A stretch of 40,000 nucleotides of DNA from Aequorivita sp. (lineage in GTDB: Bacteria > Bacteroidota > Bacteroidia > Flavobacteriales > Flavobacteriaceae), in NCBI GenBank assembly GCA_034676445.1, contig JAUCCE010000002.1, positions 997,573-1,037,572 on the forward strand, given 5' to 3'. Both the position numbers and the translations under genes were made by a program. Below, one piece after another: positions 2,706-31,271 of this stretch. Numbering within the stretch: position 1 is the stretch's first letter; each line of letters starts with the position of its first letter. Under the pieces are notes generated by a model. The model saw nothing but the letters and a program-made list of their open reading frames with translations. It did not search any database and was not told the origin of the DNA.

Positions 2706-3860
2706 TTAAATGGGTCTGTTTAACTGTTTTTTGATCTGTTCTTGCCAGTGTTGCGGTGGTCCCCGGGCGGGGAAGGTCGCGATGGTGACCAGGTTGCCTT
2801 TCTTGCATGCCGGACACTTGCGGTGCATCAAAGGCTCTGTTTCCGCAAGCTCTGGTTTGCCAACCACTTCTTGTAATTCTGGGATAATAGTTCGCTTATA
2901 ATAACTGCTCAAGATGCCGTAATGCCTGATACGGGTAAACCCCTTGGGCAGGATATGCAATGAAAACCGCCTGATAAACTCGGCATCGGGCAGGCCGAGT
3001 ATCGACTTTTTGCCCCCTTGCCGATAATCCTTTACCATAAACGTTACTTTTCCATCTTCCAGGCTTTTTAGCCGATGGTTGCTTATGGCGATCTTATGGG
3101 TATAGCGACCGAGGTATTCCACTACCTGTGAGGGCCCAAAGAATGGACGTTTGCAATAGACCACCCAGTTGTGCCTGAACAGGCTTTCGTAAAATGAAGG
3201 GGGCTTTGATTTCCCCAGTTCCTTGCGCAGGCCAGCTACAAAACGGGCCCTAAAGACCTTGCCCATTGCCTTTACAGGGAACAGGTAGCGTGCCGTTCGG
3301 CAGCCAGGCTTTCCCTTGCTTTTGGCATGTTTCCATTTGCCGGATTGGGTGATCCCGCCCCCCGGGACGATGCAGTGCAGGTGTGGGTGCAACGAGAGGT
3401 TCTGGCCCCAGGTGTGCAGGATGGCGACCATGCCCATCTTGGCGCCCAAGAACTTGGGGTTGGCACCAAAATCCCCAATGATGCCCCAGGCCGTTTTGAA
3501 CAAAAGGTCGTACACCAATTTTGGCTCGTACAGACATAATTGGTTCAGTTCACAGGGCAGGGTAAAGACCACGTGGAAGTAAGAAACGTTCAATAGATCT
3601 GCCTCCCTTGCCCGGATCCATTCTTCCTTCCTGTGTCCCTGGCACTTGGGGCAATGACGGTTGCGGCAGCTGTTGTAACTGAGATGGAGCTTATGGCAGG
3701 TAGGATTGTCGCAACGGTCTATGTGGCCGCCCAGGGCCGCGGTGCGGCACTTGCGAAGGGCGTGCAGGGTGCGTGCTTGCCAGCTGTTGGCACAAAGATC
3801 GGCAAGGCTCTCCCTGTTGCGCTCCAATACGTGCGCTACTTCATGATCGGGACAGGACAT
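2706..3860 (-). CDS. IS91-family (HUH, Y2) rolling-circle transposase
   Basis: N-terminal Cys-rich zinc-binding region (CDNPTCHKLHLSYNSCRNRHCPKC), HUH-like LHPHLHCIVPGGG, Tyr pair in VVEYLGRYTHK. 384-aa ORF; start overlaps the upstream recombinase stop. Confidence 0.9.
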   Translation of the reverse strand: MSCPDHEVAHVLERNRESLADLCANSWQARTLHALRKCRTAALGGHIDRCDNPTCHKLHLSYNSCRNRHCPKCQGHRKEEWIRAREADLLNVSYFHVVFTLPCELNQLCLYEPKLVYDLLFKTAWGIIGDFGANPKFLGAKMGMVAILHTWGQNLSLHPHLHCIVPGGGITQSGKWKHAKSKGKPGCRTARYLFPVKAMGKVFRARFVAGLRKELGKSKPPSFYESLFRHNWVVYCKRPFFGPSQVVEYLGRYTHKIAISNHRLKSLEDGKVTFMVKDYRQGGKKSILGLPDAEFIRRFSLHILPKGFTRIRHYGILSSYYKRTIIPELQEVVGKPELAETEPLMHRKCPACKKGNLVTIATFPARGPPQHWQEQIKKQLNRPI

Positions 3861-3862
3861 CC

Positions 3863-4765
3863 CTATTGGCCATAAAGCCTATCCAGCGGACTGAATGGCC
3901 TTTGCCTACCCGATTGTGCCACATGAAGGTAGATAAGCGTAGTCTGGATATCCGCATGCCCCAAGAGGTCTTTCACGCTCATAATGTCCAGGCCCATTTC
4001 CAAGAGATGGGTGGCATAAGTGTGGCGCAGAATATGGGCGGTGATCTCCTTTGGGATCCCGCTTTGCTTGCGGGCCTCACGTACGATCCATTGTATTCCC
4101 TGTGAGGAAAGCTGTGCAGGACTGCCTGTTTTATCATTGCCGGTAAAGCACCAGGTAGTGGGGTTTTCCGCCAAGAAGTACTTCTTTAGACCACGGATTT
4201 GCATCTCGGACAGGGGAACATACCGGTCCTTGCGTCCTTTGCCCTGGCGCACGTGCACCATCTTCCTGTCAAAGTCCAGGTCCCTGCACTGTAGGTTGCG
4301 GAGTTCAAAATTGCGGAGCCCACAACCATAGAGCATCGCAAGTATCAATCGGTGCTTGAGTAATTTAGGGGTCTTCAGCAGTTGTTTTATCTCCCTTTGG
4401 TTCAACACAACGGGGAGTTTCTTGGGGCGTTCAATGGAAGGAAGTACCACCCGCATTTCTTTCATGCCAAAGACACGGTAGGCATAGCGAAGACCATAGA
4501 CGGTGTGCTTGAAAAAACTGTCCGAAGGGGTCTTGTGCTGTGACTTTAAAACGTGCAGATAGTCCAAGATTCTGTTCCTCATCGAGCTCCAGTGGGCTAC
4601 AGTTAAAATGGAGTGCGATGTGTGCCAAACAGCGGGCATAGTTGGTAAGGGTGCTCTGGCTTTTGCCAGCGAGCTCAACAGATCGTTTGAGTTTGTGGTA
4701 GAGTGTTGCAAACTCTGGAACGGAAATAATTGCCCTTTGGATAAGGGTGTCATTTTTTTTTTCAT
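3863..4765 (-). CDS. tyrosine recombinase/integrase, translationally coupled to the IS91-family transposase
   Basis: GLRNFEL, GKGRKDRYVPL, HILRHTYATHLLE, LGHADIQTTLIYLHV motifs; ends ...SPLDRLYGQ*. Same architecture as the recombinase at 1-462. Confidence 0.9.
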   Translation of the reverse strand: MKKKMTPLSKGQLFPFQSLQHSTTNSNDLLSSLAKARAPLPTMPAVWHTSHSILTVAHWSSMRNRILDYLHVLKSQHKTPSDSFFKHTVYGLRYAYRVFGMKEMRVVLPSIERPKKLPVVLNQREIKQLLKTPKLLKHRLILAMLYGCGLRNFELRNLQCRDLDFDRKMVHVRQGKGRKDRYVPLSEMQIRGLKKYFLAENPTTWCFTGNDKTGSPAQLSSQGIQWIVREARKQSGIPKEITAHILRHTYATHLLEMGLDIMSVKDLLGHADIQTTLIYLHVAQSGRQRPFSPLDRLYGQ

Positions 4766-5045: not shown

Positions 5046-5125
5046 GAGAGTTTATAGAGGTAAAAGTTGGAGTAAGCAATACTCAAAAATCGTCTGAAAA
5101 TGGGTTCTGGAATCTCAGCAAAAAT

Positions 5126-5377
5126 GAAAACACGGTTTTTAGGCTGTGGAATCCCAAAATCCCATCTTGGGCAGTTTTGTGTTTGCTAAAGGAGGCTCCT
5201 GTCGGATAGCAACTGGACGCAGAGGTTTTGTTTCGGCATTTCTTTCGAAGTTGGTGCTGTGGGATTTTGGGATTCCGTCAAAGGCAATCGCTTATTTTCT
5301 CAAGATAGTAGAGGGCGCAACGTATGAAGATTTTTTAAGTAGGTGTCTATTTGCGAAGGATTAAAAACCGTGTTTTC
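5126..5377 (+). repeat. nested long-range inverted repeats inside ORF-less cassette 3 (candidate structured RNA/DNA element)
   Basis: Outer 16-bp perfect pair 5126-5141 / 5362-5377 and inner 17-bp perfect pair 5148-5164 / 5260-5276. The only ORFs here are a 68-aa ORF starting in attC A2 and a 72-aa ORF without support. Confidence 0.5.
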
Positions 5378-5433
5378 GGCAAACTTTTGAGGTCATTTCC
5401 TCTCCGCGATGGTCCGTGACCTGGAAAACCCTC

Positions 5434-5620
5434 CCACAACACCAGCTATAAGCAATGCGGGATAAGTGCCAAACCGGAAAGCAGTTGTATATTTACGAGG
5501 CCGCCAAAACTTTTTGGCGATTAGAATAATAAGAAATTAAAGAACAAAAGTTTTGGCTTAGTGCAAATTCGAAAATTATTGCATTTTTGCCCCGCACTGC
5601 TCATAGCCGAGACGTTGTGG
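5434..5620 (+). other. attC-like site, family B (B1)
   Basis: R'' CCACAAC 5434-5440 and R' GTTGTGG 5614-5620. Arms gctataagcaatgcggg / ccccgcactgctcatagc; central cgccaaaactttttggcg palindrome. 187 bp. Confidence 0.85.
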
Positions 5621-5983
5621 GCTATGTAGAAGGAATTCCAATAAAACGGAATCGACACTCAAAAATTGACGTTCTTACCAATAAAAAACGAACTAAATCC
5701 AGCGGAACCAATTGCGGGCGGATTAAAGAAAAAATGTCGGAAAGATTTTTATCCGAACTGAAAACCGTTCAGCGGACTTAAAAAAGTAGCGGATAAAAAA
5801 GAGAAAGATTTCCAATCATTGCGTCGGACTTTTATCAGCGGAACGCAAGCAACAGCGGAAAAGAAAGCTTATTTGCGAAATCTGGGTTTTAATCATCAAA
5901 GACAAGTGAATTTCTGCGATGGCTGGTGAAAGAGAAAAAAGGAAAACGGAATCAGAACGCAAGCAGAATATAAAAAACACAGC

Positions 5984-6170
5984 CCACAACATTAGCTATA
6001 AGCAATGCGGGATAAGTGCAAAACCCGAAAGCAGTTGTATATTTACGAGGTCGCCAAAACTTTTTGGCGATTAGAACAATAAGAAATTAATGAACAAAAG
6101 TTTTGGCTTGTTGCGAATTCGAAAATGATTGCATTTTTGCCCCGCACTGCTCATAGCCGAGACGTTGTGG
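5984..6170 (+). other. attC-like site, family B (B2)
   Basis: AGCCCACAAC 5981-5990 complements 5614 GTTGTGGGCT; R' GTT at 6164-6166. Confidence 0.85.
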
Positions 6171-6195
6171 GCTATGTGAAAAAAATAAATCATAA

Positions 6196-6378
6196 ATGGA
6201 TTTTATAAATCTAACTGTCGGAATTCTACTAATTACACTTGGGATTTTTCTAATTGTATTCTATAAAAAACTAAAAACTAAGAATAAAAGAGGAGGTTTA
6301 TCATTTAAATTACAAACAGCTGGAATTGGCGCTTTGATTATTGGAATCGGTTTAATCATAAGGGAATTTTGGAAATAA
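6196..6378 (+). CDS. small membrane protein (60 aa, two hydrophobic helices), cassette 5
   Basis: ATG ORF 30 nt after the cassette start: MDFINLTVGILLITLGIFLIVFYKK...TAGIGALIIGIGLIIREFWK. No homology evidence. Confidence 0.45.
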   Translation: MDFINLTVGILLITLGIFLIVFYKKLKTKNKRGGLSFKLQTAGIGALIIGIGLIIREFWK

Positions 6379-6630
6379 AATTATGGAAAAGAAAATTCTT
6401 AATTGAAGGAACCGATTCAGCGGAGAAGGAAAAAATTTCTAAACAATACCGAAAAGAATGTAACAATTGCGTCTGACCTTTATCAGCAGAACCCAAGCAA
6501 CGGCGGAAAAGAACCCTTATTTGCGAAATCTGTGTTTTAATCATCGAACGCAAGTGATTTTCTGCGATGGCCATTGAAAGATAAAAAAGGAAAACGTAAG
6601 CAGAACGCAATCGGAGCGAGCAAACACAGC

Positions 6631-6817
6631 CCACAACACAAGCTATAAGCAATGCGGGATAAGTGCCAAACCGAAAAGCAATTGTATATTTACGAGGTCG
6701 CCAAAACTTTTTGGTGATCAGAATAATAAGAAATTAAAGAACAAAAGTTTTGGCTTATTGCGGATTCGAAAATGATTGCATTTTTGCCCCGCACTGCTCA
6801 TAGCCGAGACGTTGCCT
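6631..6817 (+). other. attC-like site, family B (B3)
   Basis: AGCCCACAAC 6628-6637 complements 6164 GTTGTGGGCT; R' GTTGCCT 6811-6817. Confidence 0.85.
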
Positions 6818-7121
6818 GTCATTTAAGGAAATAAATCATAAAGAAAAAATGTCCGGTTTTTCAATTTTTTTCGGACAATTAAGCGGAATAGGATAACATA
6901 GCGGAATCGAGTAAAAAGACTTTCAATCAATACGCAAGCAACGACGGAATCGGTCCGATGCCTTGAGCAACAAAGCGGAGCAACGCCGAAACTTTAGCTT
7001 GTTTGCGGAATTTAGAAAAAGAAATAAAATTTCGGAAACCTCTGACAAAGTCGAATTCCAATGACCAAGCAGTTACAGAGCGGAATAATGATGGAGACAG
7101 CGCACAAAAACGCCAGGCAAC
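6812..7121 (+). repeat. ORF-less cassette, diverged member of cassette family X (roughly 90% identical by eye to the 11764-12076 unit, with an indel)
   Basis: Starts TTGCCTGTCATTTAAGGA and ends CAGGCAAC like the X copies. Alignment by eye shows scattered substitutions and a 1-nt indel near 7005-7030. Confidence 0.8.
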
Positions 7122-7301
7122 ACAAGCTATAAGCAATGCGGGATAAGTGCCAAACCGAAAAGCAGTTGTATATTTACGAGGTCGCCAAAACTTTTTGGCG
7201 ATTAGAATAATAAGAAATTAAAGAATAAAAGTTTTGGCTTATTGCGAATTCGAAAATGATTGCATTTTTACCCCGCACTGCTCATAGCCAAAACGTTGCC
7301 A
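7115..7301 (+). other. attC-like site, family B (B4)
   Basis: CAGGCAAC 7114-7121 complements 6811 GTTGCCTG; R' GTTGCCA 7295-7301. Confidence 0.85.
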
Positions 7302-11643: not shown

Positions 11644-11769
11644 CAATGTATATAAAAAATAGGCGAAATAGTAGTAAATTCAAGGGTTTTGAACTCGTAT
11701 CAAACTTTGTGCTTAACCGAAAGTTTTGTGCTTCGAAATCGCCTACTTTTCATATACTAACCGTTGCCT
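11638..11769 (+). other. attC-like site, family D (D1, 132 bp)
   Basis: GCAGCTAAC 11636-11644 complements 10363 GTTAGCTGC. Arms tatataaaaaataggcga / tcgcctacttttcatata; R' GTTGCCT 11763-11769. Confidence 0.85.
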
Positions 11770-12069
11770 GTCATTTAAGGAGATAAGATCATAAAGAAAA
11801 ATGTACGTTTTTTTCGTTTTTTTTCGGACACTTGAGCGGATCTGAACAACATAGCGGAATCGAGTAAAAAGACTTCCAATCAATACGCAAGCAACGGCGG
11901 AATCGGTCCGATGCCTTGAGCAACAGAGCGGAGCAACGCCGAAACTTTAGCTCGGTTGCGGAATTTCGGGAAAGAGAATAAAATTTCGGAAACCCACTGA
12001 CAAAGTCGGCTTCCAATGACCAAGCAGTTACTGTGCGGAACAATGATGGAAACAGCGCACAAAAACGCC

Positions 12070-12258
12070 AGGCAACATCGGTTATAAGCAATGCGGGATA
12101 AACGCTTAATCCAAAAGCAGTTGTATATTTGCGATGCCGCCAAAATTTCATTTTGACGACAACAGAAAAATAAAGTAAAAAATAAAATTTTGGCTTATTG
12201 CGAGCTCGAAAATGATTGCATTTTTGCCCCGCACTGCCCATAACCCAGCCCGTTGCCT
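12070..12258 (+). other. attC-like site, family B variant (B5)
   Basis: CAGGCAAC 12069-12076 complements 11763 GTTGCCTG; R' GTTGCCT 12252-12258. Confidence 0.85.
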
Positions 12259-12558
12259 GTCATTTAAGGAGATAAGATCATAAAGAAAAATGTACGTTTT
12301 TTTCGTTTTTTTTCGGACACTTGAGCGGATCTGAACAACATAGCGGAATCGAGTAAAAAGACTTCCAATCAATACGCAAGCAACGGCGGAATCGGTCCGA
12401 TGCCTTGAGCAACAGAGCGGAGCAACGCCGAAACTTTAGCTCGGTTGCGGAATTTCGGGAAAGAGAATAAAATTTCGGAAACCCACTGACAAAGTCGGCT
12501 TCCAATGACCAAGCAGTTACTGTGCGGAACAATGATGGAAACAGCGCACAAAAACGCC

Positions 12559-12747
12559 AGGCAACATCGGTTATAAGCAATGCGGGATAAACGCTTAATC
12601 CAAAAGCAGTTGTATATTTGCGATGCCGCCAAAATTTCATTTTGACGACAACAGAAAAATAAAGTAAAAAATAAAATTTTGGCTTATTGCGAGCTCGAAA
12701 ATGATTGCATTTTTGCCCCGCACTGCCCATAACCCAGCCCGTTGCCT
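12559..12747 (+). other. attC-like site, family B variant (B6)
   Basis: Identical to B5, shifted by 489 bp. Confidence 0.85.
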
Positions 12748-13047
12748 GTCATTTAAGGAGATAAGATCATAAAGAAAAATGTACGTTTTTTTCAATTTTT
12801 TTCGGACACTTAAGCGGATCTGAACAACTTAGCGGAATCGAGTAAAAAGACTTCCAATCAATACGCAAGCAACGTCGGAATCGGTCCGATGCCTTGAGCA
12901 ACAGAGCGGAGCAACGCCGAAACTTTAGCTCGGTTGCGGAATTTCGGGAAAGAGAATAAAATTTCGGAAACCCACTGACAAAGTCGGATTCCAATGACCA
13001 AGCAGTTACTGTGCGGAACAATGATGGAGACAGCGCACAAAAACGCC

Positions 13048-13236
13048 AGGCAACATCGGTTATAAGCAATGCGGGATAAATGCTTAATCCAATAGCAGTC
13101 GTATATTTGCGATGCCGCCAAAATTTCATTTTGGCTACAATAAAAAAATAAAGTAAAAAATAAAATTTTGGCTTATTGCGAGTCCGATGATGATTGCATT
13201 TTTGCCCCGCACTGCCCATAACCCAGCCCGTTATAG
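13048..13236 (+). other. attC-like site, family B variant (B7)
   Basis: R'' AGGCAAC 13048-13054 and R' GTTATAG 13230-13236. Confidence 0.85.
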
Positions 13237-13239
13237 CCA

Positions 13240-14439
13240 ATGCAAAAACAAACAATGAACAACAAGAATATACTAATATCAGGTGCAGGAATAGCAGGAG
13301 TAACGCTTGCATTTTGGTTAAAAAAATTTGGTTTCAATCCAACTATAATTGAGATTTCACCCACTTTGCGTGAAGGTGGTTATGCAATAGATTTTATGGG
13401 CGCAGGGTTTGACGTAGCCGAGAAAATGAACATTATTTCTGATTTAGAAAAAGCTGACCTTAACATTTCAAATGTCGCATTTGTGGACAAAGACAATAAT
13501 GAAAAAGGTAGTATGAATTATCAAAAAATTAAGAAAGTGCTTAAAAATAGAGCATTCACCATACTTCGTAGCGACCTAGCAAAAATTATCTATAAAAGTC
13601 TTGACAAAGAAACCGAATTTATTTTTGGAGACACTATAAAAAAAATTGAACAAGATGAAGAAAAAGTATTGGTAACAATGAAAATTGGTTTAACGCGTAC
13701 ATTTGACTTGCTTGTAGGCGCAGACGGTTTGCATTCTATTGTTAGGAAATTAATTTTTGGCGATGAATCTCAATTTGAAAAATATTATGGGTATTATACT
13801 TCTTCTTTTACCATAGACAATTTTGCAAAAAAAGGAAGAGCGTTTTCAATGTTTAATGTACCCAACAAACAAGTGGCAGTCTATTCCATTAAAGAAGAAA
13901 AAGTAGCATCATTTTTCATTTTTACATCAGCAGAAAAATTGGATTATGAGCATCACGACATTGAAAAGCAAAAGCAAATACTGAAGAACGAATTTTTGAA
14001 TGTAGGTTGGAAATGTAATGACTTACTTTCAAAAATTGACACCACTACAGATTTCTATTTTGACTCAATAAGCCAAATAAAAATGGAACAATGGAGCAAA
14101 GGACGTGTTTCTTTGGTAGGAGATGCTTGCTACTGTCCATCGTTATTATCAGGAAAAGGTTCGACATTGGCAATGGTAGGTGCTTATATTCTTGCAGGAG
14201 AATTAAAACTTGCAAATGGAAACTACAAAACAGCTTTTGAAGAATATGAAAAATTGTTGAAACCATTTATGGAAAAGAAACAAAAATCAGCTCAATCCTT
14301 TGCCAAATCATTTGTTCCAAAAAGCAATTTTGGCATTTGGTTGAGGAATCAAGCATTCAAATTAATGTCTTTCCCCCTTTTAACTAATATATTATTCAAT
14401 CAGTTTAAAGACAAGGGACTAAATTTAAAAGAGTATTGA
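13240..14439 (+). CDS. FAD-dependent (class A flavoprotein) monooxygenase, 399 aa, cassette 13
   Basis: N-terminal Rossmann GxGxxG (ILISGAGIAGVTLAF), ADG motif (LLVGADGLHSIVR), C-terminal GD motif (VSLVGDACYCPSLLSGKGSTLAM). The ATG overlaps the R' flank; alternative ATG at 13255. Confidence 0.85.
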   Translation: MQKQTMNNKNILISGAGIAGVTLAFWLKKFGFNPTIIEISPTLREGGYAIDFMGAGFDVAEKMNIISDLEKADLNISNVAFVDKDNNEKGSMNYQKIKKVLKNRAFTILRSDLAKIIYKSLDKETEFIFGDTIKKIEQDEEKVLVTMKIGLTRTFDLLVGADGLHSIVRKLIFGDESQFEKYYGYYTSSFTIDNFAKKGRAFSMFNVPNKQVAVYSIKEEKVASFFIFTSAEKLDYEHHDIEKQKQILKNEFLNVGWKCNDLLSKIDTTTDFYFDSISQIKMEQWSKGRVSLVGDACYCPSLLSGKGSTLAMVGAYILAGELKLANGNYKTAFEEYEKLLKPFMEKKQKSAQSFAKSFVPKSNFGIWLRNQAFKLMSFPLLTNILFNQFKDKGLNLKEY

Positions 14440-14454
14440 CAAAAAGAGCACTGG

Positions 14455-14585
14455 CTATAACAATGTATATAAAAAATAGGCGAGATAGTACTAAAATCCA
14501 GGGCTGTGGCTCGTATCAAAGTTGGTGGTTAATTGAAAGTTTTGTGCTTCGTAATCGCCTACTTTTCATATACTAACCGTTACCT
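14455..14585 (+). other. attC-like site, family D (D2)
   Basis: TGGCTATAAC 14452-14461 complements 13230 GTTATAGCCA; R' GTTACCT 14579-14585. Confidence 0.85.
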
Positions 14586-14656
14586 GCAAGCTGAAGAAAC
14601 CAGATAACATTTGAAAAAATTGTACCTTTACGTAAGTCAATAGTGATAAATAAAAT

Positions 14657-15493
14657 ATGGCAAAAAAGAACCAATCAAAAAGATTAACGACTCAACACAA
14701 AAAGTCTAAAGGAGTTATAGGAATATTTGGAGATATAGCAAAATTACACGACTTAAACGTTGGAACAATATCAAAACTTGTCATTGAACAACTTGAAAAA
14801 GAATATCCTCAATTAACCTTTCGTTACAGGAAAAATATTAGAAAAGAAGAGATCAACAAAGCTTTACAAAAAATAGATGAAGATTTAGGACAGACTCTTT
14901 TCGTCTCAAATTCAAGTATAAGACCTGATGGTGGAATAATTGAAGTCAAAGATGATGATGACAATTGGAGAATAATTTTGGTAACAGAAGCAAAACATCA
15001 GGGAAAAGACATTGATAATATTCTAAAAGGAAATTTAGTAGGGACATCCAATAATCAAGATTTAATGGCTGCTGGAAATGCAATAGAAAGGTCACATAAA
15101 AACATATCTGAAATTGCGAATTTTATGCTATCAGAATCTCATTTCCCGTATGTTCTATTTCTTGAAGGTTCAAATTTTCTAACTGAAACCATTTCAATTG
15201 AAAGACCTGACGGAAGAATTGTAAAACTTGAATATAATTCTGGAATATTAAATAGAATGGATAGGCTGACTTCCGCAAACTATGGAATGCCGATTAATAC
15301 AAACTTATGTGAAAATAAGTTTGTCAAACCTAAAGATAAAACAATTATGCTTCAAGCAACTTCCATTTATACACAAGGTAAAGGTGGGAAATGGGATGCA
15401 AAAGAAATGCTCGATATTATGATTGAGGTTTCTAAAACATCTCTTAAAGTTTTAGGAAGTGATATATTTAAACAAATAACAGAAAATAAATAA
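14657..15493 (+). CDS. type II restriction endonuclease, EcoRI family
   Basis: Collinear with my recollection of R.EcoRI along the full length: GVIGIFGD, LFVSNSSIRPDGGIIEVKDD, TEAKHQGKD (PD...EAK centre), MAAGNAIERSHKNISEIANFMLSESHFPYVLFLEGSNFLTE, NSGILNRMDRLT. Confidence 0.9.
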   Translation: MAKKNQSKRLTTQHKKSKGVIGIFGDIAKLHDLNVGTISKLVIEQLEKEYPQLTFRYRKNIRKEEINKALQKIDEDLGQTLFVSNSSIRPDGGIIEVKDDDDNWRIILVTEAKHQGKDIDNILKGNLVGTSNNQDLMAAGNAIERSHKNISEIANFMLSESHFPYVLFLEGSNFLTETISIERPDGRIVKLEYNSGILNRMDRLTSANYGMPINTNLCENKFVKPKDKTIMLQATSIYTQGKGGKWDAKEMLDIMIEVSKTSLKVLGSDIFKQITENK

Positions 15494-15502
15494 GAATTAT
15501 TA

Positions 15503-16597
15503 ATGGCAAGAAAAGCAACAAATAAATTATTACAAAAAGCTAAAAAATCAAAAAGTGATGAGTTTTACACTCAACTTTCTGATATAGAAAGTGAATTGCA
15601 ACATTACAAAAGCCATTTTAAAAACAAAGTGGTTTATTGTAATTGCGATGACCCTTCAATTAGCAATTTCTTTAATTATTTTGCTTCAAACTTCAAGGAA
15701 TTAGGACTAAAGAAATTAATAGCTTCCTGTTACAGAAAGCAAGAAATAGACTTGTTTAACACAGAAAAAACTGAAAATGGTTTTTATTATGAGTACACAG
15801 GTACAGAAAAAGAACACATTAAACTAAGCTCAACAGACATAATCCATTTTAAAGGAGATGGAGATTTTCGAAGTGCAGAAAGTATCGAACTACTAAAACA
15901 AGCAGACATTGTAGTTACAAATCCACCATTTTCACTTTTCAGAGAATACGTTGCCCAACTCATAGAATACGACAAAAAATTTTTAACAATCGGTAACATT
16001 AACGCAATTACATATAAAGAAATTTTTAAACTAATAAAAGAAAACAATGCGTGGTTGGGAATAAATCTTGGTAGAGGCATTTCGGGTTTTATAGTTCCAG
16101 AACATTACGAACTTTATGGTACTGAAGCCAGAATTGACAGCTTTGGGAATAGAATTATTTCACCAAACAATTGTCTATGGCTTACTAATTTAGACACTTC
16201 TAAACGACACGAAGATATAGTTCTTACAAAAAGATATTATGGAAACGAAATAGAATATCCTGAATATGACAACTACAATGGTATAAATGTCAATAAGACT
16301 AAAAACATTCCATTAGATTATAAAGGTTTTATGGGAGTTCCTATAACATTTTTACATAAGTTCAATCCTGACCAATTTGAAATAATTAAATTCAGAAAAG
16401 GAAATGATGGGAAAGATTTGTCGATAAATGGAAAATGTCCATATTTTAGGATTTTAATTAGAAATAAACGAATACAATCGAAATTAATTGAGAAAGAACA
16501 AAGCCAGCAGGTAACAATGTATAAAAATAATAGCGGCATTAGTGCTAAATCCAAAGTAAACGAGTCCAAAAAAAGTCTGTACTTAACTGAAAAATAG
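15503..16597 (+). CDS. N6-adenine DNA methyltransferase, M.EcoRI family
   Basis: MARKATNKLLQKAKKSKSDEFYTQ, VVYCNCDDP, IVVTNPPFSLFREY (NPPF motif), GFIVPEHYELYGTEARID... match M.EcoRI from memory. The last ~90 nt of the ORF run through attC F (R'' at 16509). Confidence 0.9.
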   Translation: MARKATNKLLQKAKKSKSDEFYTQLSDIESELQHYKSHFKNKVVYCNCDDPSISNFFNYFASNFKELGLKKLIASCYRKQEIDLFNTEKTENGFYYEYTGTEKEHIKLSSTDIIHFKGDGDFRSAESIELLKQADIVVTNPPFSLFREYVAQLIEYDKKFLTIGNINAITYKEIFKLIKENNAWLGINLGRGISGFIVPEHYELYGTEARIDSFGNRIISPNNCLWLTNLDTSKRHEDIVLTKRYYGNEIEYPEYDNYNGINVNKTKNIPLDYKGFMGVPITFLHKFNPDQFEIIKFRKGNDGKDLSINGKCPYFRILIRNKRIQSKLIEKEQSQQVTMYKNNSGISAKSKVNESKKSLYLTEK

Positions 16598-16638
16598 TGC
16601 ATTTTAACCCGCTACTATTCTTATACTAAACGTTGCCT
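16509..16638 (+). other. attC-like site, family F (130 bp)
   Basis: GCAGGTAAC 16507-16515 complements 14579 GTTACCTGC. Arms tataaaaataatagcgg / cccgctactattcttata; R' GTTGCCT 16632-16638. Confidence 0.8.
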
Positions 16639-17121
16639 GTCATTTAAGGAGATAAGATCATAAAGAAAAATGTACGTTTTTTTCGTTTTTTTTCGGACAC
16701 TTGAGCGGATCTGAACAACATAGCGGAATCGAGTAAAAAGACTTCCAATCAATACGCAAGCAACGGCGGAATCGGTCCGATGCCTTGAGCAACAGAGCGG
16801 AGCAACGCCGAAACTTTAGCTCGGTTGCGGAATTTCGGGAAAGAGAATAAAATTTCGGAAACCCACTGACAAAGTCGGCTTCCAATGACCAAGCAGTTAC
16901 TGTGCGGAACAATGATGGAAACAGCGCACAAAAACGCCAGGCAACATCGGTTATAAGCAATGCGGGATAAACGCTTAATCCAAAAGCAGTTGTATATTTG
17001 CGATGCCGCCAAAATTTCATTTTGACGACAACAGAAAAATAAAGTAAAAAATAAAATTTTGGCTTATTGCGAGCTCGAAAATGATTGCATTTTTGCCCCG
17101 CACTGCCCATAACCCAGCCCG
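16633..17121 (+). repeat. fourth (dispersed) copy of the 489-bp ORF-less cassette X + attC unit
   Basis: Same minus-strand ORF translations as copies 1 and 2; R' to R' distance 16632 to 17121 is 489 bp. Confidence 0.9.
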
Positions 17122-24573: not shown

Positions 24574-26241
24574 TTAGAACAGACCTTCAATAATTCCATC
24601 TTTATCAATGCTAATCCTTTCGGCGGCCGGGGTAGTTGGTAATCCTGGCATCCGCAGCATACTACCCGCAATGGGAATAATAAATCCGGCACCCGTTGCT
24701 ATTTCAAACTCTCTTATATAAATATCGAAATGCTCGGGCCGTCCCACTAACTTCTGGTCATCACTAAAACTTTTTTCTGTTTTCGCTATACATACAGGTA
24801 AACCTCCATAGCCCATTGCTTCATATTTATTCAATTGCGAGATAGCCAAATCACTTAAAACCACATTTTCTCCTCCATAAATGGTTTGACATATCTTTTC
24901 CATTTTGGTTTCTATGTTGTCATCGAGATTGTAGGTGGGCTGAAATTGGTTGACACAAGAATTTGCGGCCTTTATAACTTCTCCAGCCAAAGCCAAACAC
25001 CCGTTTCCTCCTTTTTCCCAACCGGAGCTCAAGGCTACGGGAATGCCCAATTTTTCACAATGGTCCTCCACGACTTTTATTTCAGCTTCCGTATCAGATT
25101 TAAAGGCGTTTATGGAAACCACAATAGGAATACCAAAACTTTTTAGGCTGGCAATATGTCCATCCAAATTGGGAAGTCCTCTTTTAAGAGCTTCTACATC
25201 CTCTTGGGTAATTTCTTTTAACGATTTTCCGCCGTGATATTTTAAGGCTCTTATGGTAGCAACCAGGACCACGGTTTTAGGAGAAATCCCAGCTGCGCGA
25301 CATTTAATATTCAAAAACTTCTCTGCGCCAAGATCGGAGCCGAATCCAGCTTCGGTTATTGTATAATCGCTAAGGGTCATCCCCATTTTTGTGGCTACAA
25401 TAGAATTCGTTCCTTGTGCAATATTGGCAAAAGGGCCACCGTGGATAATTGCGGGATTTCCTTCCAGGGTTTGAACCAAATTAGGTTTTATAGCATCTTT
25501 CAGCAGTACGGCCATAGCGCCCTGTGCATTTAGATCTCTTGCGAATATCGGCTTTCCTTCAAAGGTATCGCCCACATAAATATTCCCACATCTTTCTTTT
25601 AAGTCTTCTAAATCGGAGGCCATACACAGAATCGCCATAATCTCGGAGGCTGCAGTAATATTAAAACCCGTTTCTCTTGAAACTCCGCCAGCGCCTCCGC
25701 CAAATGCGGTCTGGATATTCCGCAGAGCGCGATCATTCATATCCATACAGCGTTTCCAAACTACAGTTTTAGGATCAATGCCAAGGGTTCTCGATTTACT
25801 TTGAATATTATTTTCTATAAGAGCAGAAAGAAGGTTGTTGGCTTTTTCTATCGCGTGGAAATCTCCCGTAAAATGCAAGTTGATATCCACCATAGGAATA
25901 ACCTGGCTCCACCCGCCACCGGCAGCGCCACCTTTAATGCCAAATACGGGCCCCAAACTAGGTTCCCTAATTACCGCAACGGCTTTCTTGTTTAAAATAT
26001 TGAGCGCATCCACAAGGCCTATAGAAGTTGTTGTTTTTCCTTCGCCGGGAGGAGTTGGCGTAATTGCAGTAACTAAAATGAGATTGTTCTCTTTTATTTT
26101 TTCCTCATCAATAATTTCTAAAGGAATTTTTGCTTTGTCATTCCCGTAATACTCCAGCTTCTCTTCAGGAATTGCCAATTTTGCCGCTATTTCTCGAATG
26201 TGCTTAGGGGTAACACTTTGTGCAATCTGTATTTCTGTCAT
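24574..26241 (-). CDS. fhs: formate--tetrahydrofolate ligase
   Basis: 555-aa ORF; TPTPPGEGKTTTSIGL P-loop and full-length collinearity with FTHFS. Confidence 0.95.
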   Translation of the reverse strand: MTEIQIAQSVTPKHIREIAAKLAIPEEKLEYYGNDKAKIPLEIIDEEKIKENNLILVTAITPTPPGEGKTTTSIGLVDALNILNKKAVAVIREPSLGPVFGIKGGAAGGGWSQVIPMVDINLHFTGDFHAIEKANNLLSALIENNIQSKSRTLGIDPKTVVWKRCMDMNDRALRNIQTAFGGGAGGVSRETGFNITAASEIMAILCMASDLEDLKERCGNIYVGDTFEGKPIFARDLNAQGAMAVLLKDAIKPNLVQTLEGNPAIIHGGPFANIAQGTNSIVATKMGMTLSDYTITEAGFGSDLGAEKFLNIKCRAAGISPKTVVLVATIRALKYHGGKSLKEITQEDVEALKRGLPNLDGHIASLKSFGIPIVVSINAFKSDTEAEIKVVEDHCEKLGIPVALSSGWEKGGNGCLALAGEVIKAANSCVNQFQPTYNLDDNIETKMEKICQTIYGGENVVLSDLAISQLNKYEAMGYGGLPVCIAKTEKSFSDDQKLVGRPEHFDIYIREFEIATGAGFIIPIAGSMLRMPGLPTTPAAERISIDKDGIIEGLF

Positions 26242-26691
26242 AGAATTATTGTTTTAATAAGTGGAATAAAGGTAAAGTTTCAGCAAACGAAATTATATGA
26301 CGATTGTCATCCCCCTCAGACCGACCGAAGACTTTAAAGATCCCAACATTAAGCCTAAGAACTACGCAGATTAAAATATTGGATAGTTTCGGGATTTTTG
26401 CCGTGCAGCTCAATGATACTGCTTAAAATTCCTACGAACACAGTTTGTGGTTATTCAGTTAATTAATTCCACTTACCGCTTTTTATAAATAGTTATAAGG
26501 GTTTTCAATTATTGAAAAAAGAGGATTAAATGCATATTGAATAAATTGAAAAAAGCTTTTCCCAACCGAAAAGATGACTTCCAACCCTTAATAGGAATGG
26601 GGAATTCGGAGTATAAGGCAAAAAAAAATCTCAGACTTTCGTAAATTTACTTATCAATGGGAGGACGAGATGATACAAAAAAGATTGTTTC

Positions 26692-27260
26692 TTGGTTCCA
26701 ATGAAGATTGGGAACTCTAAAGTAAAACCAATGAGAAATGACCTTAACAAATATCGAAAACGAGACCCACGATTAAACTACCGTGGATCGTCTCCTTCAA
26801 GAATGGACAATTTGACGGATGCAGTATTTGGAATTGCAATCGCATTGGTGGTTTTTTATGTTTATCCTCTTCGCTTCCTCTCCCTTTTTTAACTAGTATC
26901 TTTTTTCAAGTCGATGTGGGATTGATTATTGAAGAAAGTCAAATGCCTTATTTAATGATTTATTACGGCTTTGTTCTTTTCGCCTTGAATTTCGTGCTTT
27001 TCTTTTTCTATTATATAGCATACCGAAATGGAGAAAAATTAGATTTGAGTCCATTCGAAATTTTCAACACAAGATTACAAATGATCAAACTCGTAATCAT
27101 ATTTACGATTCCTCTTATTTCAATTCTTGTTACAATAATTTTTATGAATCATTCGTCAGCATTAGTAACGACTCTAGGTGGTTTAGCCTATTTTCTGTAT
27201 GGTCCTACTATTTTCATTTGGTCTCGGGGATATAAGAAAAAATCGAAAGCGTGGAATTAG
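26692..27260 (+). pseudogene. DUF1211/TMEM175-like membrane protein split into two frames (26692-26892 and 26916-27260)
   Basis: The first ORF carries the family N-terminal signature RMDNLTDAVFGIAIALVV and stops 12 codons later. A second multi-TM ORF continues in another frame. T6 run at 26852-26857. Confidence 0.35.
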
Positions 27261-27299
27261 TATCGGAATAGGTCATTTCCGAACGGGCCTTAAAAAATA

Positions 27300-27335
27300 A
27301 AAACCCTCCCAACGCGAATTGGGACGGTTTTTATT
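27300..27335. terminator. possible bidirectional stem-loop terminator between convergent genes
   Basis: ccctcccaa (27304-27312) / ttgggacgg (27319-27327), flanked by an A-run upstream and a T-run downstream. Confidence 0.4.
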
Positions 27336-27356
27336 CATTTTTTAAATATTTCTTAC

Positions 27357-27590
27357 TCAGTGCCTCTTTCCAGTTAAGCCAAATATTTTATTGACAACCT
27401 TAAGATAGAAGGCTCTTTTTATAAATGCACCAACTGTTCCGGCAATCAAGTTTATTGGAGAAAAAGTTTCACTTATTGTATCCTTGGCATTCCTTATACT
27501 AAGTTTAAATTCCTCTTTATCTATCTTCGATTTAAGCCGTAGATATTTTAGATCGGTTTCTATTTCTTCAAAACTGGTATAATGTTTCAT
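27357..27590 (-). CDS. hypothetical small protein (77 aa), last gene of the YtxH operon
   Basis: ORF co-oriented and closely spaced with the two upstream genes; no motif recognised. Confidence 0.5.
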   Translation of the reverse strand: MKHYTSFEEIETDLKYLRLKSKIDKEEFKLSIRNAKDTISETFSPINLIAGTVGAFIKRAFYLKVVNKIFGLTGKRH

Positions 27591-27669
27591 TCGTATCTAA
27601 ATATTTGATTTTAAGGAAATCGAAAGTTCCTTATTTCAATGGTGAAATACTTGGCAAGCATTTTTGAAG

Positions 27670-28113
27670 TTATTCTAAAATACTTTCATCTTTCATTAAT
27701 TTCTCTTCCTGAAGAGCAGTGAACTCCACAACCTCTCGTCGGGCAAGGTCTTTGGGATCAATATCATCTTCGTCGTAAAATAATCCGGAAAATTTATGAA
27801 GCATGCCCCGCTCGATGAGTTTTCTTCCATAGACAAACATAAAAATCAGGACTATTCCATAAAAGCCTCCGATCAGCAAAAACCCCACAAACGTCTGCTC
27901 AAACAGGGTTCCCAACCATAAGGCCGCCCCAATTGAAAGGAAAAGCATTACGAATAGGGAAAGACTTCCATATACCAATAGATTAACCAAAGATATAGCG
28001 CCCTTCATTGAGGATTTGAACAAGCGGAGTTTGTAATACTCCATAGTGCTCAGTCCGAAATCCTCAATTCGATCGGTTACGTTGTGTAAACTTCTGGAAA
28101 TGTCCTCAAACAT
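27670..28113 (-). CDS. membrane protein (holin-X/DUF1469-like, 147 aa)
   Basis: Two central TM helices. Synteny with a YtxH gene is typical of Bacteroidota as I recall. Start is 3 nt after the upstream stop. Confidence 0.6.
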   Translation of the reverse strand: MFEDISRSLHNVTDRIEDFGLSTMEYYKLRLFKSSMKGAISLVNLLVYGSLSLFVMLFLSIGAALWLGTLFEQTFVGFLLIGGFYGIVLIFMFVYGRKLIERGMLHKFSGLFYDEDDIDPKDLARREVVEFTALQEEKLMKDESILE

Positions 28114-28115
28114 TA

Positions 28116-28493
28116 CTATAGAGTAGTTTTTTGGGCTGTGGTTTTAACTTGGTCCACTTTTGTATCAATTTGAAGCTTGGCGTTTTGTTTTCTCAAAGCC
28201 TCCAATTTGTCTTCCATTGCCAATAAGATTTCATCAGCCTTATAACTAGCAGAAGAAAGGGTTTCGCTAAGTTTTTCTTCAAAACTCAACCTTGCCATCT
28301 GAGCTTTTTCACTAAGATTTTGACTAGTTTCCTTAAACTGTTTGCTCAGTCTTTTTTGGGTTTTTTTTGCCTCTTTACTGAGTTTGTCCCGTGTTTCTGA
28401 ACCTTTGTCCGGAGCATAAAGTATTCCTAATCCTGCTCCTATTACTACTCCTGTTAAAAGTGCAATTAAGGTTTGACCTGTATTTGATGCCAT
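28116..28493 (-). CDS. YtxH-domain protein
   Basis: From ATG 28493: MASNTGQTLIALLTGVVIGAGLGILYAPDKGSETRDKL... is the YtxH N-terminal signature; coiled-coil rest. Confidence 0.75.
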   Translation of the reverse strand: MASNTGQTLIALLTGVVIGAGLGILYAPDKGSETRDKLSKEAKKTQKRLSKQFKETSQNLSEKAQMARLSFEEKLSETLSSASYKADEILLAMEDKLEALRKQNAKLQIDTKVDQVKTTAQKTTL

Positions 28494-28817
28494 AATTCTA
28501 TTTTTTATAGTGGTTAATAATGTCAAAGATAGGCAACCAGCGCTCCTCTAGTTGTTAACAAGCGGTTAATAAAGACTCCCCAATACACAAGAAAACCTTA
28601 AAAATTTCAATAAAATTCAATGTATTAAACAAATAGGGAAATGCCATCTCCATAATCTGTTATAAAACCAGTAATCTTCAAATGGCAGTTGACAGATTCA
28701 TCAGAATGAAGGATAATTTTCAGGATTAAACCATCTATAGTAAATACGATGAAGTCCAATAAAAATAGTTTCGCAATATACGGTTATAGAAAAAATATCC
28801 TTCCTCGTAAAGATGTT

Positions 28818-30497
28818 CTATTCCGAAATCTTTGCCCAGGAATCACGTAATGGGACGGTGCGATTGAAAATAATATTGTCCGGACTCGAATCACGGTCTA
28901 TCACAAAATAACCCAATCTCTGAAATTGGAACTTATCCTCAGCTACTGCAGTTTTTACACTAGGTTCCGCATATCCTGTGACGACGGTCAAAGATTCTGG
29001 GTTTACAAATTCCATAAATCCCTTTTCTTTAACAGTATCTGGAGATGCTTCGGTAAAAAGCCGATCGTATAAACGCACTTCAACAGGAATGGCATGCTCG
29101 GCAGAGACCCAATGCAAAGTTCCTTTCACTTTTCGCAAAGATGCTTCAGAACCGCTTCCACTTTTACTATCGGGATCGTAGGTGCAATGGATTTCGGTGA
29201 TATTTCCTTCTGAATCCTTAACTACACTTTCACCTTTAATTATATAGGCGTTTTTAAGTCGGACCTCTTTTCCAATGGTCAATCTAAAAAATTTCCGGTT
29301 TGCTTCTTCCAAAAAATCATCCCTCTCTATCAACAATTCTCTAGAAAATGGCACTTCACGATATCCTGCACTTTCATCCTCTTGATTGTTTTCGGCTTCA
29401 AGCATTTCGGTTTTCCCTTCGGGATAATTGTCAATTATAAGTTTGACAGGATCCAATACGACCATAATTCGCGGTACTTTTTTGTTCAAGTCTTCACGCA
29501 CATTGAATTCCAAATGGGAAACATCAATAAGGTTCTCGCGTTTTCCAACTCCGATGCTATCTGCAAAATTTCTAATGGATTCTGGGGTATAACCTCTTCG
29601 GCGCAATCCAGAAATAGTAGGCATTCTGGGATCATCCCAACCGGTAACAACTCCAGCAGCTACCAGTTCGGCAAGTTTTCGTTTGCTAACAACGGTATGA
29701 CTGAGATTTCTGCGGGCAAATTCACGCTGTTTAGGGCGCAATTTATCATCATCGACCACTTGGTCAAGGAACCAATCGTAAAGCTCTCTATGGGGCAGGA
29801 ATTCAAGCGTACAAAAGGAATGTGATACCTGTTCTATATAATCGCTCTCACCGTGGGTCCAATCGTACATTGGAAAGATTTTCCAATCTGTTCCCGTACG
29901 ATGGTGGGTTTTGTTTACAGTTCTATACATAACTGGGTCCCGCATCAACATGTTTGGCGATTCCATATTGATTTTTGCTCGAAGTACGTGTTCACCTTCT
30001 TTGGTTTCGCCGTTCTTCATCTTTTCGAGCAAATCCAAATTTTCTTCTACAGAACGATCCCTAAACGGGCTTGGTCTTCCTGGGGTATTGGGAGTTCCTT
30101 TCTGTTCTGCAATTGCTTCCGAAGTTTGGGAATCCACATACGCTTTTCCGTCCTTTACCATTTGAACCGCCCAATCGTATAGTTGCTGAAAATAATCGGA
30201 AGCATATCGTTCTTCGGCCCATTTAAAGCCCAACCATTTGATGTCGCGTTTTATGGCATCAACAAATTCCTGCTCTTCTTTGGCAGGATTAGTATCATCA
30301 AACCTCAGATTAACAGGAGCATCGTATTTTAGACCCAAACCAAAGTTTAAGCAAATCGAAGACGCATGCCCTATATGCAAATATCCATTTGGCTCCGGTG
30401 GAAAACGAAAGCATAACTGTTCTCTTTTATATCCTGTTCGTAAGTCTTCCTCTATAATGTGTTCAATAAAATTGAGTGGTGTTGCTTCTTTTTCCAT
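28818..30497 (-). CDS. glnS: glutamine--tRNA ligase
   Basis: 559 aa; class I HIGH (PEPNGYLHIGHA) and VSKRK (KMSKS-type) motifs; full-length GlnRS collinearity. Confidence 0.95.
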   Translation of the reverse strand: MEKEATPLNFIEHIIEEDLRTGYKREQLCFRFPPEPNGYLHIGHASSICLNFGLGLKYDAPVNLRFDDTNPAKEEQEFVDAIKRDIKWLGFKWAEERYASDYFQQLYDWAVQMVKDGKAYVDSQTSEAIAEQKGTPNTPGRPSPFRDRSVEENLDLLEKMKNGETKEGEHVLRAKINMESPNMLMRDPVMYRTVNKTHHRTGTDWKIFPMYDWTHGESDYIEQVSHSFCTLEFLPHRELYDWFLDQVVDDDKLRPKQREFARRNLSHTVVSKRKLAELVAAGVVTGWDDPRMPTISGLRRRGYTPESIRNFADSIGVGKRENLIDVSHLEFNVREDLNKKVPRIMVVLDPVKLIIDNYPEGKTEMLEAENNQEDESAGYREVPFSRELLIERDDFLEEANRKFFRLTIGKEVRLKNAYIIKGESVVKDSEGNITEIHCTYDPDSKSGSGSEASLRKVKGTLHWVSAEHAIPVEVRLYDRLFTEASPDTVKEKGFMEFVNPESLTVVTGYAEPSVKTAVAEDKFQFQRLGYFVIDRDSSPDNIIFNRTVPLRDSWAKISE

Positions 30498-30647
30498 GTA
30501 TGAATTTATAAGACGGCAAATTTACCAAAAAATACCATGCAATGAATTCTAAGGTAAACAAATAGACTTTTATCTGATTTTAGATAAATCCTGCATCCAA
30601 ACCTGCATTTGTATTACTTTTGTCATCTGAAAATTAAAACACGCAAC

Positions 30648-31004
30648 GTGGACAGTATAAAATTAAAAAACATCCGTCTTTATGCCTATCACGGTTGTTT
30701 GGACGAAGAAGGACACATCGGTTCTGACTATGTGGTAAACCTGAAAGTAAAAGCTGATTTGACCAAAGCCTCAAAAAGTGATTCCCTAGCAGATACGGTG
30801 GACTACGTTGAACTCCAAAACATTGTTCGGAACGAAATGGCCATTAGGTCGAAACTTTTGGAACATGTTGCCGATCGAATTATGAATTCAGTTTTAGAAA
30901 AAGTTAATTCGGTAAAAGAAGTGGAAGTCAGCGTTGCCAAAAAGAATCCGCCAATTGGTGGCGATGTGGCCGAAGTGCGCGTAACTATGAAGAAGAAACG
31001 GTAA
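30648..31004 (+). CDS. folB: dihydroneopterin aldolase
   Basis: From GTG 30648: VDSIKLKNIRLYAYHGCLDEEGHIGSDYVVNLKV..., typical FolB; 118 aa. Confidence 0.85.
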   Translation: MDSIKLKNIRLYAYHGCLDEEGHIGSDYVVNLKVKADLTKASKSDSLADTVDYVELQNIVRNEMAIRSKLLEHVADRIMNSVLEKVNSVKEVEVSVAKKNPPIGGDVAEVRVTMKKKR

Positions 31005-31153
31005 ATTTAATTTAAAATCGCCGAATTCAACTTAATCTTTTATATTTGCAATCTGATTGGGGAAATCTCCCTGGAGAGATTCCTACCGAAGTTTATCCTG
31101 AGCCTGCCTACCTGCGGTTAGCAGGCAGGCGAAGCCGAAGGGCAGGAATTTAG

Positions 31154-31224
31154 GGCATCGTGGCCGAGTGGCTAGGCTCAGCTCTGCAAAAGCTGCTACA
31201 GCGGTTCGAATCCGCTCGATGCCT
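31154..31224 (+). tRNA. tRNA-Cys (GCA)
   Basis: Hand-folded cloverleaf: acceptor GGCATCG/CGATGCC, anticodon stem CAGCT/AGCTG with loop CTGCAAA, T arm AGCGG-TTCGAAT-CCGCT, 4-nt variable loop. Confidence 0.9.
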
Positions 31225-31230
31225 CTGAAA

Positions 31231-31259
31231 CCTTCAACTTTTAAGTTGGAGGTTTTTTT
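31231..31259 (+). terminator. rho-independent terminator after tRNA-Cys
   Basis: ccttcaactt / aagttggagg stem followed by T7. Confidence 0.7.
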
Positions 31260-31271
31260 ATTGACAAAATG

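Follow-up and report, generated by a model that had tools for sequence, protein, structure and literature searches.

A repeated and apparently gene-less integron cassette family in an Aequorivita array

The window analysed in this work, a stretch of 40,000 nt from Aequorivita sp. (GenBank assembly GCA_034676445.1, contig JAUCCE010000002.1, positions 997,573 to 1,037,572), contains an array of integron-type cassettes in which a 489-nt unit, referred to here as cassette X, is present in several copies; all coordinates given below are positions of the window. The X unit is mobilised as a whole by site-specific recombination at a G|TT core. It is very probably a true cassette without a gene, and its conservation is, on the evidence of the alignments, at the nucleotide level and not at that of a protein. 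The best explanation overall, put forward here with just under even confidence, is that X is a gene-less Aequorivita-type cassette, mobilised at G|TT, selected for its short motifs and of a regulatory or promoter type.

Copies, boundaries and coding potential of cassette X

Tandem Repeats Finder (TRF) detected a period of 489 nt, with 3.0 copies and 98% matches, at 11761-13232, and the repeat finder located two more copies, the fourth near 16.6 kb and a diverged one near 6.8 kb. An initial annotation of the sequence had placed the 489-bp unit at 11764, 12253, 12742 and 16633, and both TRF and direct comparison confirmed these positions. In a base-by-base comparison X1 (11764..12252), X2 (12253..12741, in tandem with X1) and X4 (16633..17121, dispersed) were 100% identical across the 489 nt, in agreement with what had been claimed for copies 1, 2 and 4, and the third tandem copy, X3 (12742..13230), differed from X1 by 18 substitutions and no indels. 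The diverged homologue that had been noticed at about 6.8 kb corresponds to Xdiv (6812..7295), a sublineage of 484 nt including its attC recombination site. It was 92% identical to X1 in the body and 74% in the attC, had three 1-nt deletions in the body (alignment columns 46, 213 and 233), and its attC was of the type found in its neighbours c1-c3, a set of gene-less or nearly gene-less cassettes described below. In total, the window holds five copies of cassette X, all of them on the + strand.

X1 and X2 lie directly upstream of X3, and X4 is found 3.9 kb away, amid unrelated cassettes. Several of the X3 variants were common to the copy of an Aequorivita metagenome-assembled genome (MAG; locus L001) and absent from X1, X2 and X4. 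Because X3 shares these variants with the MAG copy, it represents the older allele, and X1, X2 and X4 a derived allele that was recently expanded to three identical copies. No internal tandem substructure was found in X by TRF at a score of 30. A pure artefact as the origin of the tandem copies is very improbable: X3 differs from X2 at 18 sites, and therefore at least one tandem pair is real.

A short-read MAG (GCA_034675165.1) matched positions 17072-35301 of the window at 99.74% identity, and its contig stopped 50 nt into the attC of X4. Logan contigs that were 100% identical to the window also broke at attC repeats. As the contigs of both sources end there, short-read assemblies of the array fragment at attC repeats, and the end of the MAG contig within the X4 attC is as expected for a true multi-copy repeat.

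Homologues of X were searched with the 150-amino-acid (aa) antisense open reading frame (ORF) of the unit, which is called as a gene in other assemblies, as a bait; among 5.8 billion proteins, it recovered four clusters, all of them X copies. When 185,579 species genomes were scanned with a degenerate DNA pattern of the module that X shares with c2 and c3, matches were found only in Aequorivita viscosa, A. capsosiphonis, an Aequorivita MAG and "Flavobacteriaceae bacterium LMO-SS05", and a scan of JGI metagenomes gave two matches, both of c2 type. Full-length X was present in the MAG (95.7% identity), in A. capsosiphonis (87%) and in two ENA metagenome contigs (86%). The ENA contig L003 carried X twice, in a run of purely gene-less cassettes ordered X-c1-X-c1-c2, and LMO-SS05 carried a short variant of 413 nt (L007). 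A search of other arrays, which had been proposed as a check in the initial annotation, thus recovered X in Aequorivita spp. and one related flavobacterium, in at least four species-level lineages and with three alleles within one array. Cassette X is paralogous within arrays (five copies in the window and two in L003), with its close homologues confined to the genus level, and the family is restricted to Aequorivita-type Flavobacteriaceae. Regarding a plasmid or phage origin of X, no blastn match was obtained, and a literature search on integrons of Aequorivita or Flavobacteriaceae retrieved nothing relevant.

Each X unit consists of a 306-nt body and an attC of about 190 nt, which in X1 extends over 12070..12258 (+ strand, family B) and has the same layout in every copy. 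In X1, the R'' box (AGGCAAC) was located at 12070-12076, L'' at 12080-12097, L' at 12227-12245 and R' (G|TTGCCT) at 12252-12258, the arms being GGTTATAAGCAATGCGGG for L'' and CCCCGCACTGCCCATAACC for L'. Folded as single-stranded DNA, the attC bottom strand gave z scores of -4.4 and -4.1, and none of 200 shuffled sequences folded as well. The imperfect inverted repeats R''-L''...L'-R' and the bottom-strand hairpin that are the hallmark of an integron cassette are both present. The usual length of attC sites is roughly 57-141 nt, and the sites of family B, at about 190 nt, are well above this range. In the window, this family comprised the sites at 5418-5614, 5968-6164, 6615-6811 and 7099-7295 and the four X attC sites, and was found only on gene-less or nearly gene-less cassettes; outside the X1-type copies, its members showed a perfect internal hairpin, TCGCCAAAA-CTT-TTTTGGCGA.

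When the boundaries were compared in the window plus loci L001, L002, L003, L007 and L009, all 11 X copies began with |TTGCC and ended with ..CG|, in nine different left/right contexts. Such an exact G|TT-bounded unit in differing contexts is what defines a cassette, and boundaries this precise are characteristic of recombination of the integron type, site-specific and at the G|TT crossover. The two options offered in the initial annotation for the amplification were very active mobility or selection on dosage, for example as a small RNA. Site-specific mobilisation is borne out by these ends and by the identical copies at two positions, the preferential conservation of the motifs argues for a function, and a structured small RNA is not supported (fold z scores of about +0.4 and -0.8, and one covarying pair; see below).

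The + strand of X, which had been described as full of stops, indeed contains 3-6 of them per frame, and the longest sense ORF inside the body has 23 aa. The 150-aa antisense ORF (11789..12241, - strand) starts at 12241 and an 87-aa minus-strand ORF at 12143, both inside the attC (12070-12258), as previously noted. The antisense frame was open in six of the seven aligned copies, corresponding to four of five independent lineages. The sum of five pairwise comparisons gave 11 synonymous to 48 non-synonymous changes in this frame, which is about neutral, and the ratios of the six frames ranged from 11:48 to 21:38, none of them coding-like. Variable columns were distributed over the three phases as 6/13/11, without a 3-nt periodicity.

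The nucleotide sequence stays conserved in Xdiv despite its frame-shifting deletions. The conserved sequence does change frame between the diverged and the recent copies, as had been observed, although not through one indel: two deletions 20 nt apart (columns 213 and 233) and that at column 46 are involved, and because of these 1-nt deletions the 69-aa ORF of Xdiv crosses all three minus frames of the X copies. Translated in six frames, X gave no match in Pfam. Two short sense candidates were also rejected. A 14-aa mini-ORF after AAGGAG in X1 varies in frame, length and sequence between lineages and has lost its ATG in L002, and a 21-aa ORF with a TTG start (11916-11981), though uninterrupted in every variant, has undergone mostly non-synonymous changes.

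In summary, X has no sense ORF longer than 70 aa and no protein similarity beyond X itself, and it is conserved over its whole length without a synonymous-site pattern. The description of X as an attC-bounded cassette without an ORF was therefore upheld, as no codon-type pattern appeared in five independent homologues. Judging by its substitutions, the 150-aa antisense ORF is not under coding selection. The refuting condition named in the initial annotation, an intact and codon-constrained ORF in the homologues, was looked for and not found, and therefore the reading of the conservation as one at nucleotide level also stands.

Sense motifs, their conservation and possible roles

The pentamer GCGGA was found six times on the + strand of the 313-nt body and never on the - strand. 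In dinucleotide-preserving shuffles of the body, 0.57 occurrences were expected and none of 2000 shuffles reached six, in line with the initial rough estimate of fewer than one by chance. The core CGGA was present eight times on the + strand and once on the other (1.9 expected), about one per 30-40 nt, forming an array at 11825..12039 with starts at 11825, 11837, 11855, 11898, 11929, 11959, 11987 and 12036. R''-like GCAAC boxes (11891, 11920 and 11933) and TTCCAAT motifs (11874 and 12011), also on the + strand, are interleaved with this array. Every GCAAC box is followed 1-4 nt on by CGGA, or by CCGA in the case of the box at 11933, and GCAAC is the R'' core pentamer of the X attC and of other attC sites of the array. 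Within the body, conservation is strongest in a 39-nt block, AAAAAGACTTCCAATCAATACGCAAGCAACGGCGGAATC (11866..11904, + strand), with three variable columns among full-length X copies and a sequence in L007 identical to that of X1. Its core, TTCCAATCA..CAAGCAAC..CGGAA, is also present in cassette c2, and c3 shares only CAAGCAAC..CGGAA, the CAAGCAACGGCGGAA part.

Between sublineages, the body (columns 89-313) was 91-94% identical, the AT-rich 5' part 66-80% and the attC 71-77%. Columns of CGGA and GCAAC were variable in 4/50 cases, compared to 65/242 of the other columns (one-sided Fisher p=0.002), and with L007 added the numbers were 9/50 and 145/242 (p=4e-8). The bases 5' of several CGGA vary freely (GG, GT, GA or AA before CGGAATCGG) while the core is fixed. 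In L007, 58 nt have been lost between two CGGAA motifs and the sequence has diverged elsewhere, and the variant retains six of the eight CGGA, all GCAAC boxes and the unchanged 39-nt block. This preferential conservation of the motifs argues for a function, and the body is probably kept by selection on short sense motifs (eight CGGA, several GCAAC, TTCCAAT) and not on a protein or a stable fold.

Other readings of the motifs were tried. A Chi-site reading (AGCGG is the Chi of Bacillus) was dropped because the conserved core is CGGA and the preceding bases are variable, and a likeness of CGATTCCGC to the T-arm of a tRNA was rejected for lack of a complementary stem. An antisense target was also searched for within the window, with nothing above chance apart from the module common to c2 and c3.

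The RNA fold of X had z scores of +0.41 for the sense and -0.76 for the antisense strand. In the alignment fold, only 1/75 predicted pairs was compensatory (covariation term +0.92), and the best hairpin, which contains this pair, is not kept in L007. Neither excess stability nor the covarying pairs of a structured RNA were therefore seen, and the alignment fold, which bears on the covariation check suggested in the initial annotation, does not support such an RNA. No match of X to Rfam was obtained at the gathering threshold or at E<=5. In all eight variants, partition-function calculations gave the GGA triplets an unpaired probability of 0.26-0.42, against a sequence mean of 0.45-0.57, so these triplets are not placed in unpaired loops as in CsrB/Rsm RNAs. 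No terminator-like site was found in X, which matches no curated RNA family and has no recognisable promoter of its own.

The promoter consensus of Bacteroidota consists of TTG at -33 and TAnnTTTG at -7. The only TAnnTTTG match in the unit, TATATTTG (12124..12131, + strand), is a perfect -7 box on the sense strand of the amplified lineage. The start codons of promoterless cassettes follow X3, X4 and Xdiv within 10-33 nt.

For the favoured explanation, new copies of X would arise when the cassette is excised in circular form and inserted again at attC sites. The dispersed X4 would require such site-specific excision and reinsertion, and the tandem pair could result from successive insertions at the attC whose end is at 11763, or else from unequal crossing-over. 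The motif array might then constitute a protein-binding platform acting in cis, and X might supply or modulate sense transcription into the promoterless cassettes that start 10-33 nt after its attC. Such a cis-acting regulatory or promoter role, proposed because of the experimental precedent for the class of gene-less cassettes, is possible although doubtful.

Several points weigh against this explanation. The binding protein is hypothetical. The TATATTTG box falls within the attC, has no correctly spaced -33 TTG before it and corresponds to TATATTTA in other lineages of X. In the conserved body no properly spaced -33/-7 Bacteroidota promoter was found, a sigma-70 scan of the sense strand gave nothing above chance, and a promoter in the attC would leave it unexplained that conservation is highest in the body. 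The motifs used in the column test were defined on one of the aligned sequences, which introduces some bias, and in the c2 family the CGGA columns were not better conserved than the rest (9/40 versus 90/336 variable). Finally, the identity between species could be due in part to recent horizontal spread and not to purifying selection.

The first alternative is a selfish, hyper-mobile cassette, for which the GCAAC repeats of the body would be accessory recombinase sites that raise its own excision and reinsertion, the copy number reflecting drive and not a benefit to the host. The three copies that are 100% identical, lie at two positions of the array and are bounded exactly at the core fit this alternative, as do the duplication of X in the independent metagenome scaffold L003, the four GCAAC (0.6 expected), all in R'' orientation and strongly conserved, and the genus restriction, which is compatible with co-evolution with a cognate integrase. 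By analogy with attI1, which carries direct-repeat accessory sites for IntI1, the repeats of X might have a similar use, and a selfish nature was one of the options listed for the Vibrio cassettes (Boucher 2006, PMC1382264). However, X is single-copy in most genomes, no integron integrase was found in the window or among ten larger ORFs of neighbouring loci, and the repeats would sit in single-stranded DNA outside the folded attC. Binding of IntI to single-stranded DNA in that position is not known, and neither is a role of CGGA in integron recombination, which also counts against this alternative. It is, on balance, somewhat unlikely.

Less likely again is that X, together with c2 and c3, represents a cassette class beyond genes and promoters, that is, a mobile, copy-number-tunable protein-binding module (CGGA plus R''-like GCAAC) whose dose would be set by amplification and which would serve as a decoy or platform, its partner being the integron integrase or a host regulator.

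It is improbable that X acts in trans, as a sense RNA that would titrate a protein through its GGA motifs like the CsrB/RsmZ sponges, with copy number as dose. The eight sense CGGA against one antisense, at a density like that of CsrC-type sponges, the conservation of motifs among variable flanks and a strand bias suited to a single-strand reader are in favour of such a sponge. Against it stand GGA triplets that are not preferentially unpaired, a fold without excess stability (z = +0.41), a single covarying pair in a hairpin lost in L007, and the absence of an Rfam match, of an intrinsic terminator and of a recognisable promoter of its own. Also, CsrA is generally absent from Bacteroidota.

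About equally improbable is a functionless passenger, which would look conserved through recent horizontal spread and gene conversion, its richness in motifs being a relic of its origin. X is non-coding and unstructured and has no database match, the CGGA columns of the c2 family are not specially conserved, and in Vibrio, paralogous cassettes have been proposed to undergo gene conversion (PMC1382264). A passenger, however, would not be expected to show such rate heterogeneity, in which the 5' part and the attC are far less conserved than the body, or to keep six of eight CGGA, the GCAAC boxes and the 39-nt block amid the divergence and deletion of L007. Its persistence in at least four species-level lineages and as three alleles in one array also speaks against this, as does the argument that useless cassettes are readily lost by excision (Blanco 2024, PMC11014356).

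Very improbable, finally, is that the tandem copies are an assembly artefact or that X is a protein gene, either decayed or unrecognised: the junction between the identical X1 and X2 needs reads for its verification and the 150-aa antisense frame is open in 6/7 aligned copies, but X3 and X2 differ 18 times, the 99.74% MAG contig breaks inside the X4 attC, two copies occur independently in L003 and assemblers collapse identical tandem repeats instead of inventing them, and the frame is antisense, starts inside the attC, has no homologue except X itself and no Pfam match, shows an about neutral 11:48 ratio and is frame-shifted in Xdiv with its nucleotides conserved.

Array context and neighbouring elements

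Between about 1 and 24.3 kb, the window consists of a low-GC (~33%) array in which ORFs of the + strand alternate with recurrent imperfect palindromes of several families. The attC families A, A' and B recur in the same orientation from about 1050 to about 23000, and the cassette array spans at least 24 kb. It stops just before a housekeeping block on the opposite strand (formate-tetrahydrofolate ligase, GlnS and RNase R). The start codon of an FAD-monooxygenase cassette lies 10 nt past X3, and X4 is placed between an EcoRI restriction-modification cassette and an HNH-protein cassette. The EcoRI endonuclease and methylase (14657-16597) form a single two-gene cassette, and the HNH-domain protein is encoded at 17154-17900. 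Defence-type cassettes thus surround X copies, and nucleases of the Mrr type were observed in related arrays (L001 and L008).

No integron integrase was found within the window, which thus does not show a complete integron, with its IntI and attI. The sole tyrosine recombinase (300 aa, 3863-4765, - strand) resembles integron integrases and Xer recombinases; it scored 164.6 bits against the integron-integrase model TIGR02249, whose cut-off is 265 bits, and therefore it is not to be taken for the integrase of the array. Together with an adjacent IS91-family transposase (384 aa), it makes up an insert with 54% GC (2706-4765, - strand) that splits the array. Ten larger ORFs from neighbouring loci were also scanned, and none of them matched an integrase family. 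Because no integron integrase lies in the window, the array may be a group of attC sites that has no integrase (CALIN), or it may belong to the distal portion of a chromosomal integron with intI upstream of the window. In the Aequorivita MAG EA07-05 (L001, 5373-5980), X is the first cassette, and the sequence to its left, ..GGTTATATCCATG|TTGCC, is no attC, so this array appears to start at a non-attC site. Upstream of it there are about 600 nt of non-coding sequence and divergent non-cassette genes, with no integrase.

Cassettes c2 and c3 are distant relatives of X, with which they have in common the shared module and an attC of family B. Cassette c1 (5046-5614) is gene-less and contains a long nested near-perfect hairpin at about 5125-5390 (RNA fold z = -2.2); a homologue with 82% identity is present twice in L003, adjoining the X copies. 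Cassette c2 (5615-6164, + strand) is also gene-less and has ten sense CGGA, some of them spaced by about 17-18 nt. Its family, compared across loci L003, L004, L005, L008, L009, L010 and L011, was represented at 89-92% identity in A. viscosa, A. capsosiphonis, the Aequorivita MAG (two copies) and two JGI contigs. Cassette c3 (6165-6811, + strand) is a chimera of a 60-aa ORF (6196-6378) and 347 nt with 89% identity to the 3' part of c2. Two hydrophobic helices are predicted in the product of this ORF, and c3 might pair a small membrane peptide, perhaps of a toxin-like kind, with a non-coding partner.

Two further elements were observed in the window. A group II intron of about 18810-20677 (- strand) is inserted in an attC, with a reverse transcriptase/maturase at 18895-20175, Rfam domains D1-D4 at 20262-20557, and flanks ..GCCGCTAA and CATTGTATAAGCGTAATGCGGG. 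Its orientation is opposite to that of the cassettes, and group IIC-attC introns insert into attC sites in this way. The other element, ORF-poor and of about 1.7 kb (about 35020-36800), has inverted ends of about 53 nt with 13-nt tandem repeats (CCTGCCTGTCGTG / AGGCACGACAGGC) and an exact 96-nt direct repeat at 35021 and 35623, and may be a non-autonomous mobile element.

Comparison with known systems

Non-coding cassettes make up 6-49% of Vibrio superintegrons, and hardly anything is known of the cassette arrays of Bacteroidota. Conserved, genus-restricted, paralogous non-coding cassettes, which the initial annotation did not mention, are already described for Vibrio arrays: they are more than 80% conserved over their full length, show no synonymous-site pattern and were read as selfish or regulatory (Boucher 2006, PMC1382264). 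X resembles them in being ORF-less, repeated within one array, accompanied by genus-level homologues and free of a synonymous pattern. It differs from them in its host, a member of the Bacteroidota (Flavobacteriaceae), in its unrelated sequence, in the length of its attC (about 190 nt), in its sense CGGA/GCAAC array, none being described for the Vibrio families, and in copy number, five against up to 45 (PMC1382264).

Most of 30 gene-less Vibrio cassettes carry sense promoters, which according to the same work are not identifiable in silico, and gene-less cassettes of Treponema with promoter activity are also cited there (Blanco 2024, PMC11014356). Like these promoter cassettes, X is gene-less, belongs to the size range of about 490-670 bp, is found in long arrays and lies directly upstream of promoterless coding cassettes (PMC11014356). 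Unlike those of Vibrio, it would have to follow the Bacteroidota promoter consensus, its only -7 match is located in the attC, and a promoter role is suggested by analogy.

Other known systems share single features with X. As in the DR1/DR2 repeats of attI1, there are direct repeats of a core-like GCAAC (the R'' core), all in the orientation of a recombination core; in X these are located in the cassette body upstream of the attC and not in an attI, and their binding is putative. As in CsrB, RsmY and RsmZ, X has many GGA motifs on one strand with an irregular spacing of 12-50 nt. Unlike in these RNAs, the GGA are not in exposed loops, their context is CGGA and not ANGGA, there is no recognisable promoter or terminator of its own and no Rfam match, and the partner protein is probably absent from the host phylum. 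X is not a member of the Csr/Rsm sponges or of any Rfam family.

The occurrence of the same syndrome (gene-less, genus-restricted, conserved and amplified) in Flavobacteriaceae suggests that it is a general property of large arrays. The motif array and the 39-nt block, together with the natural short variant, offer a compact target for deciding between a regulator, a decoy and a selfish element, and if the motifs bind an integrase or a regulator, they would add a layer to the expression or reshuffling of the array. By every criterion that can be tested on the sequence, X belongs to the known gene-less paralogous integron cassettes; new in X are the sequence family, the host phylum, the very long attC and the array of CGGA and GCAAC motifs.

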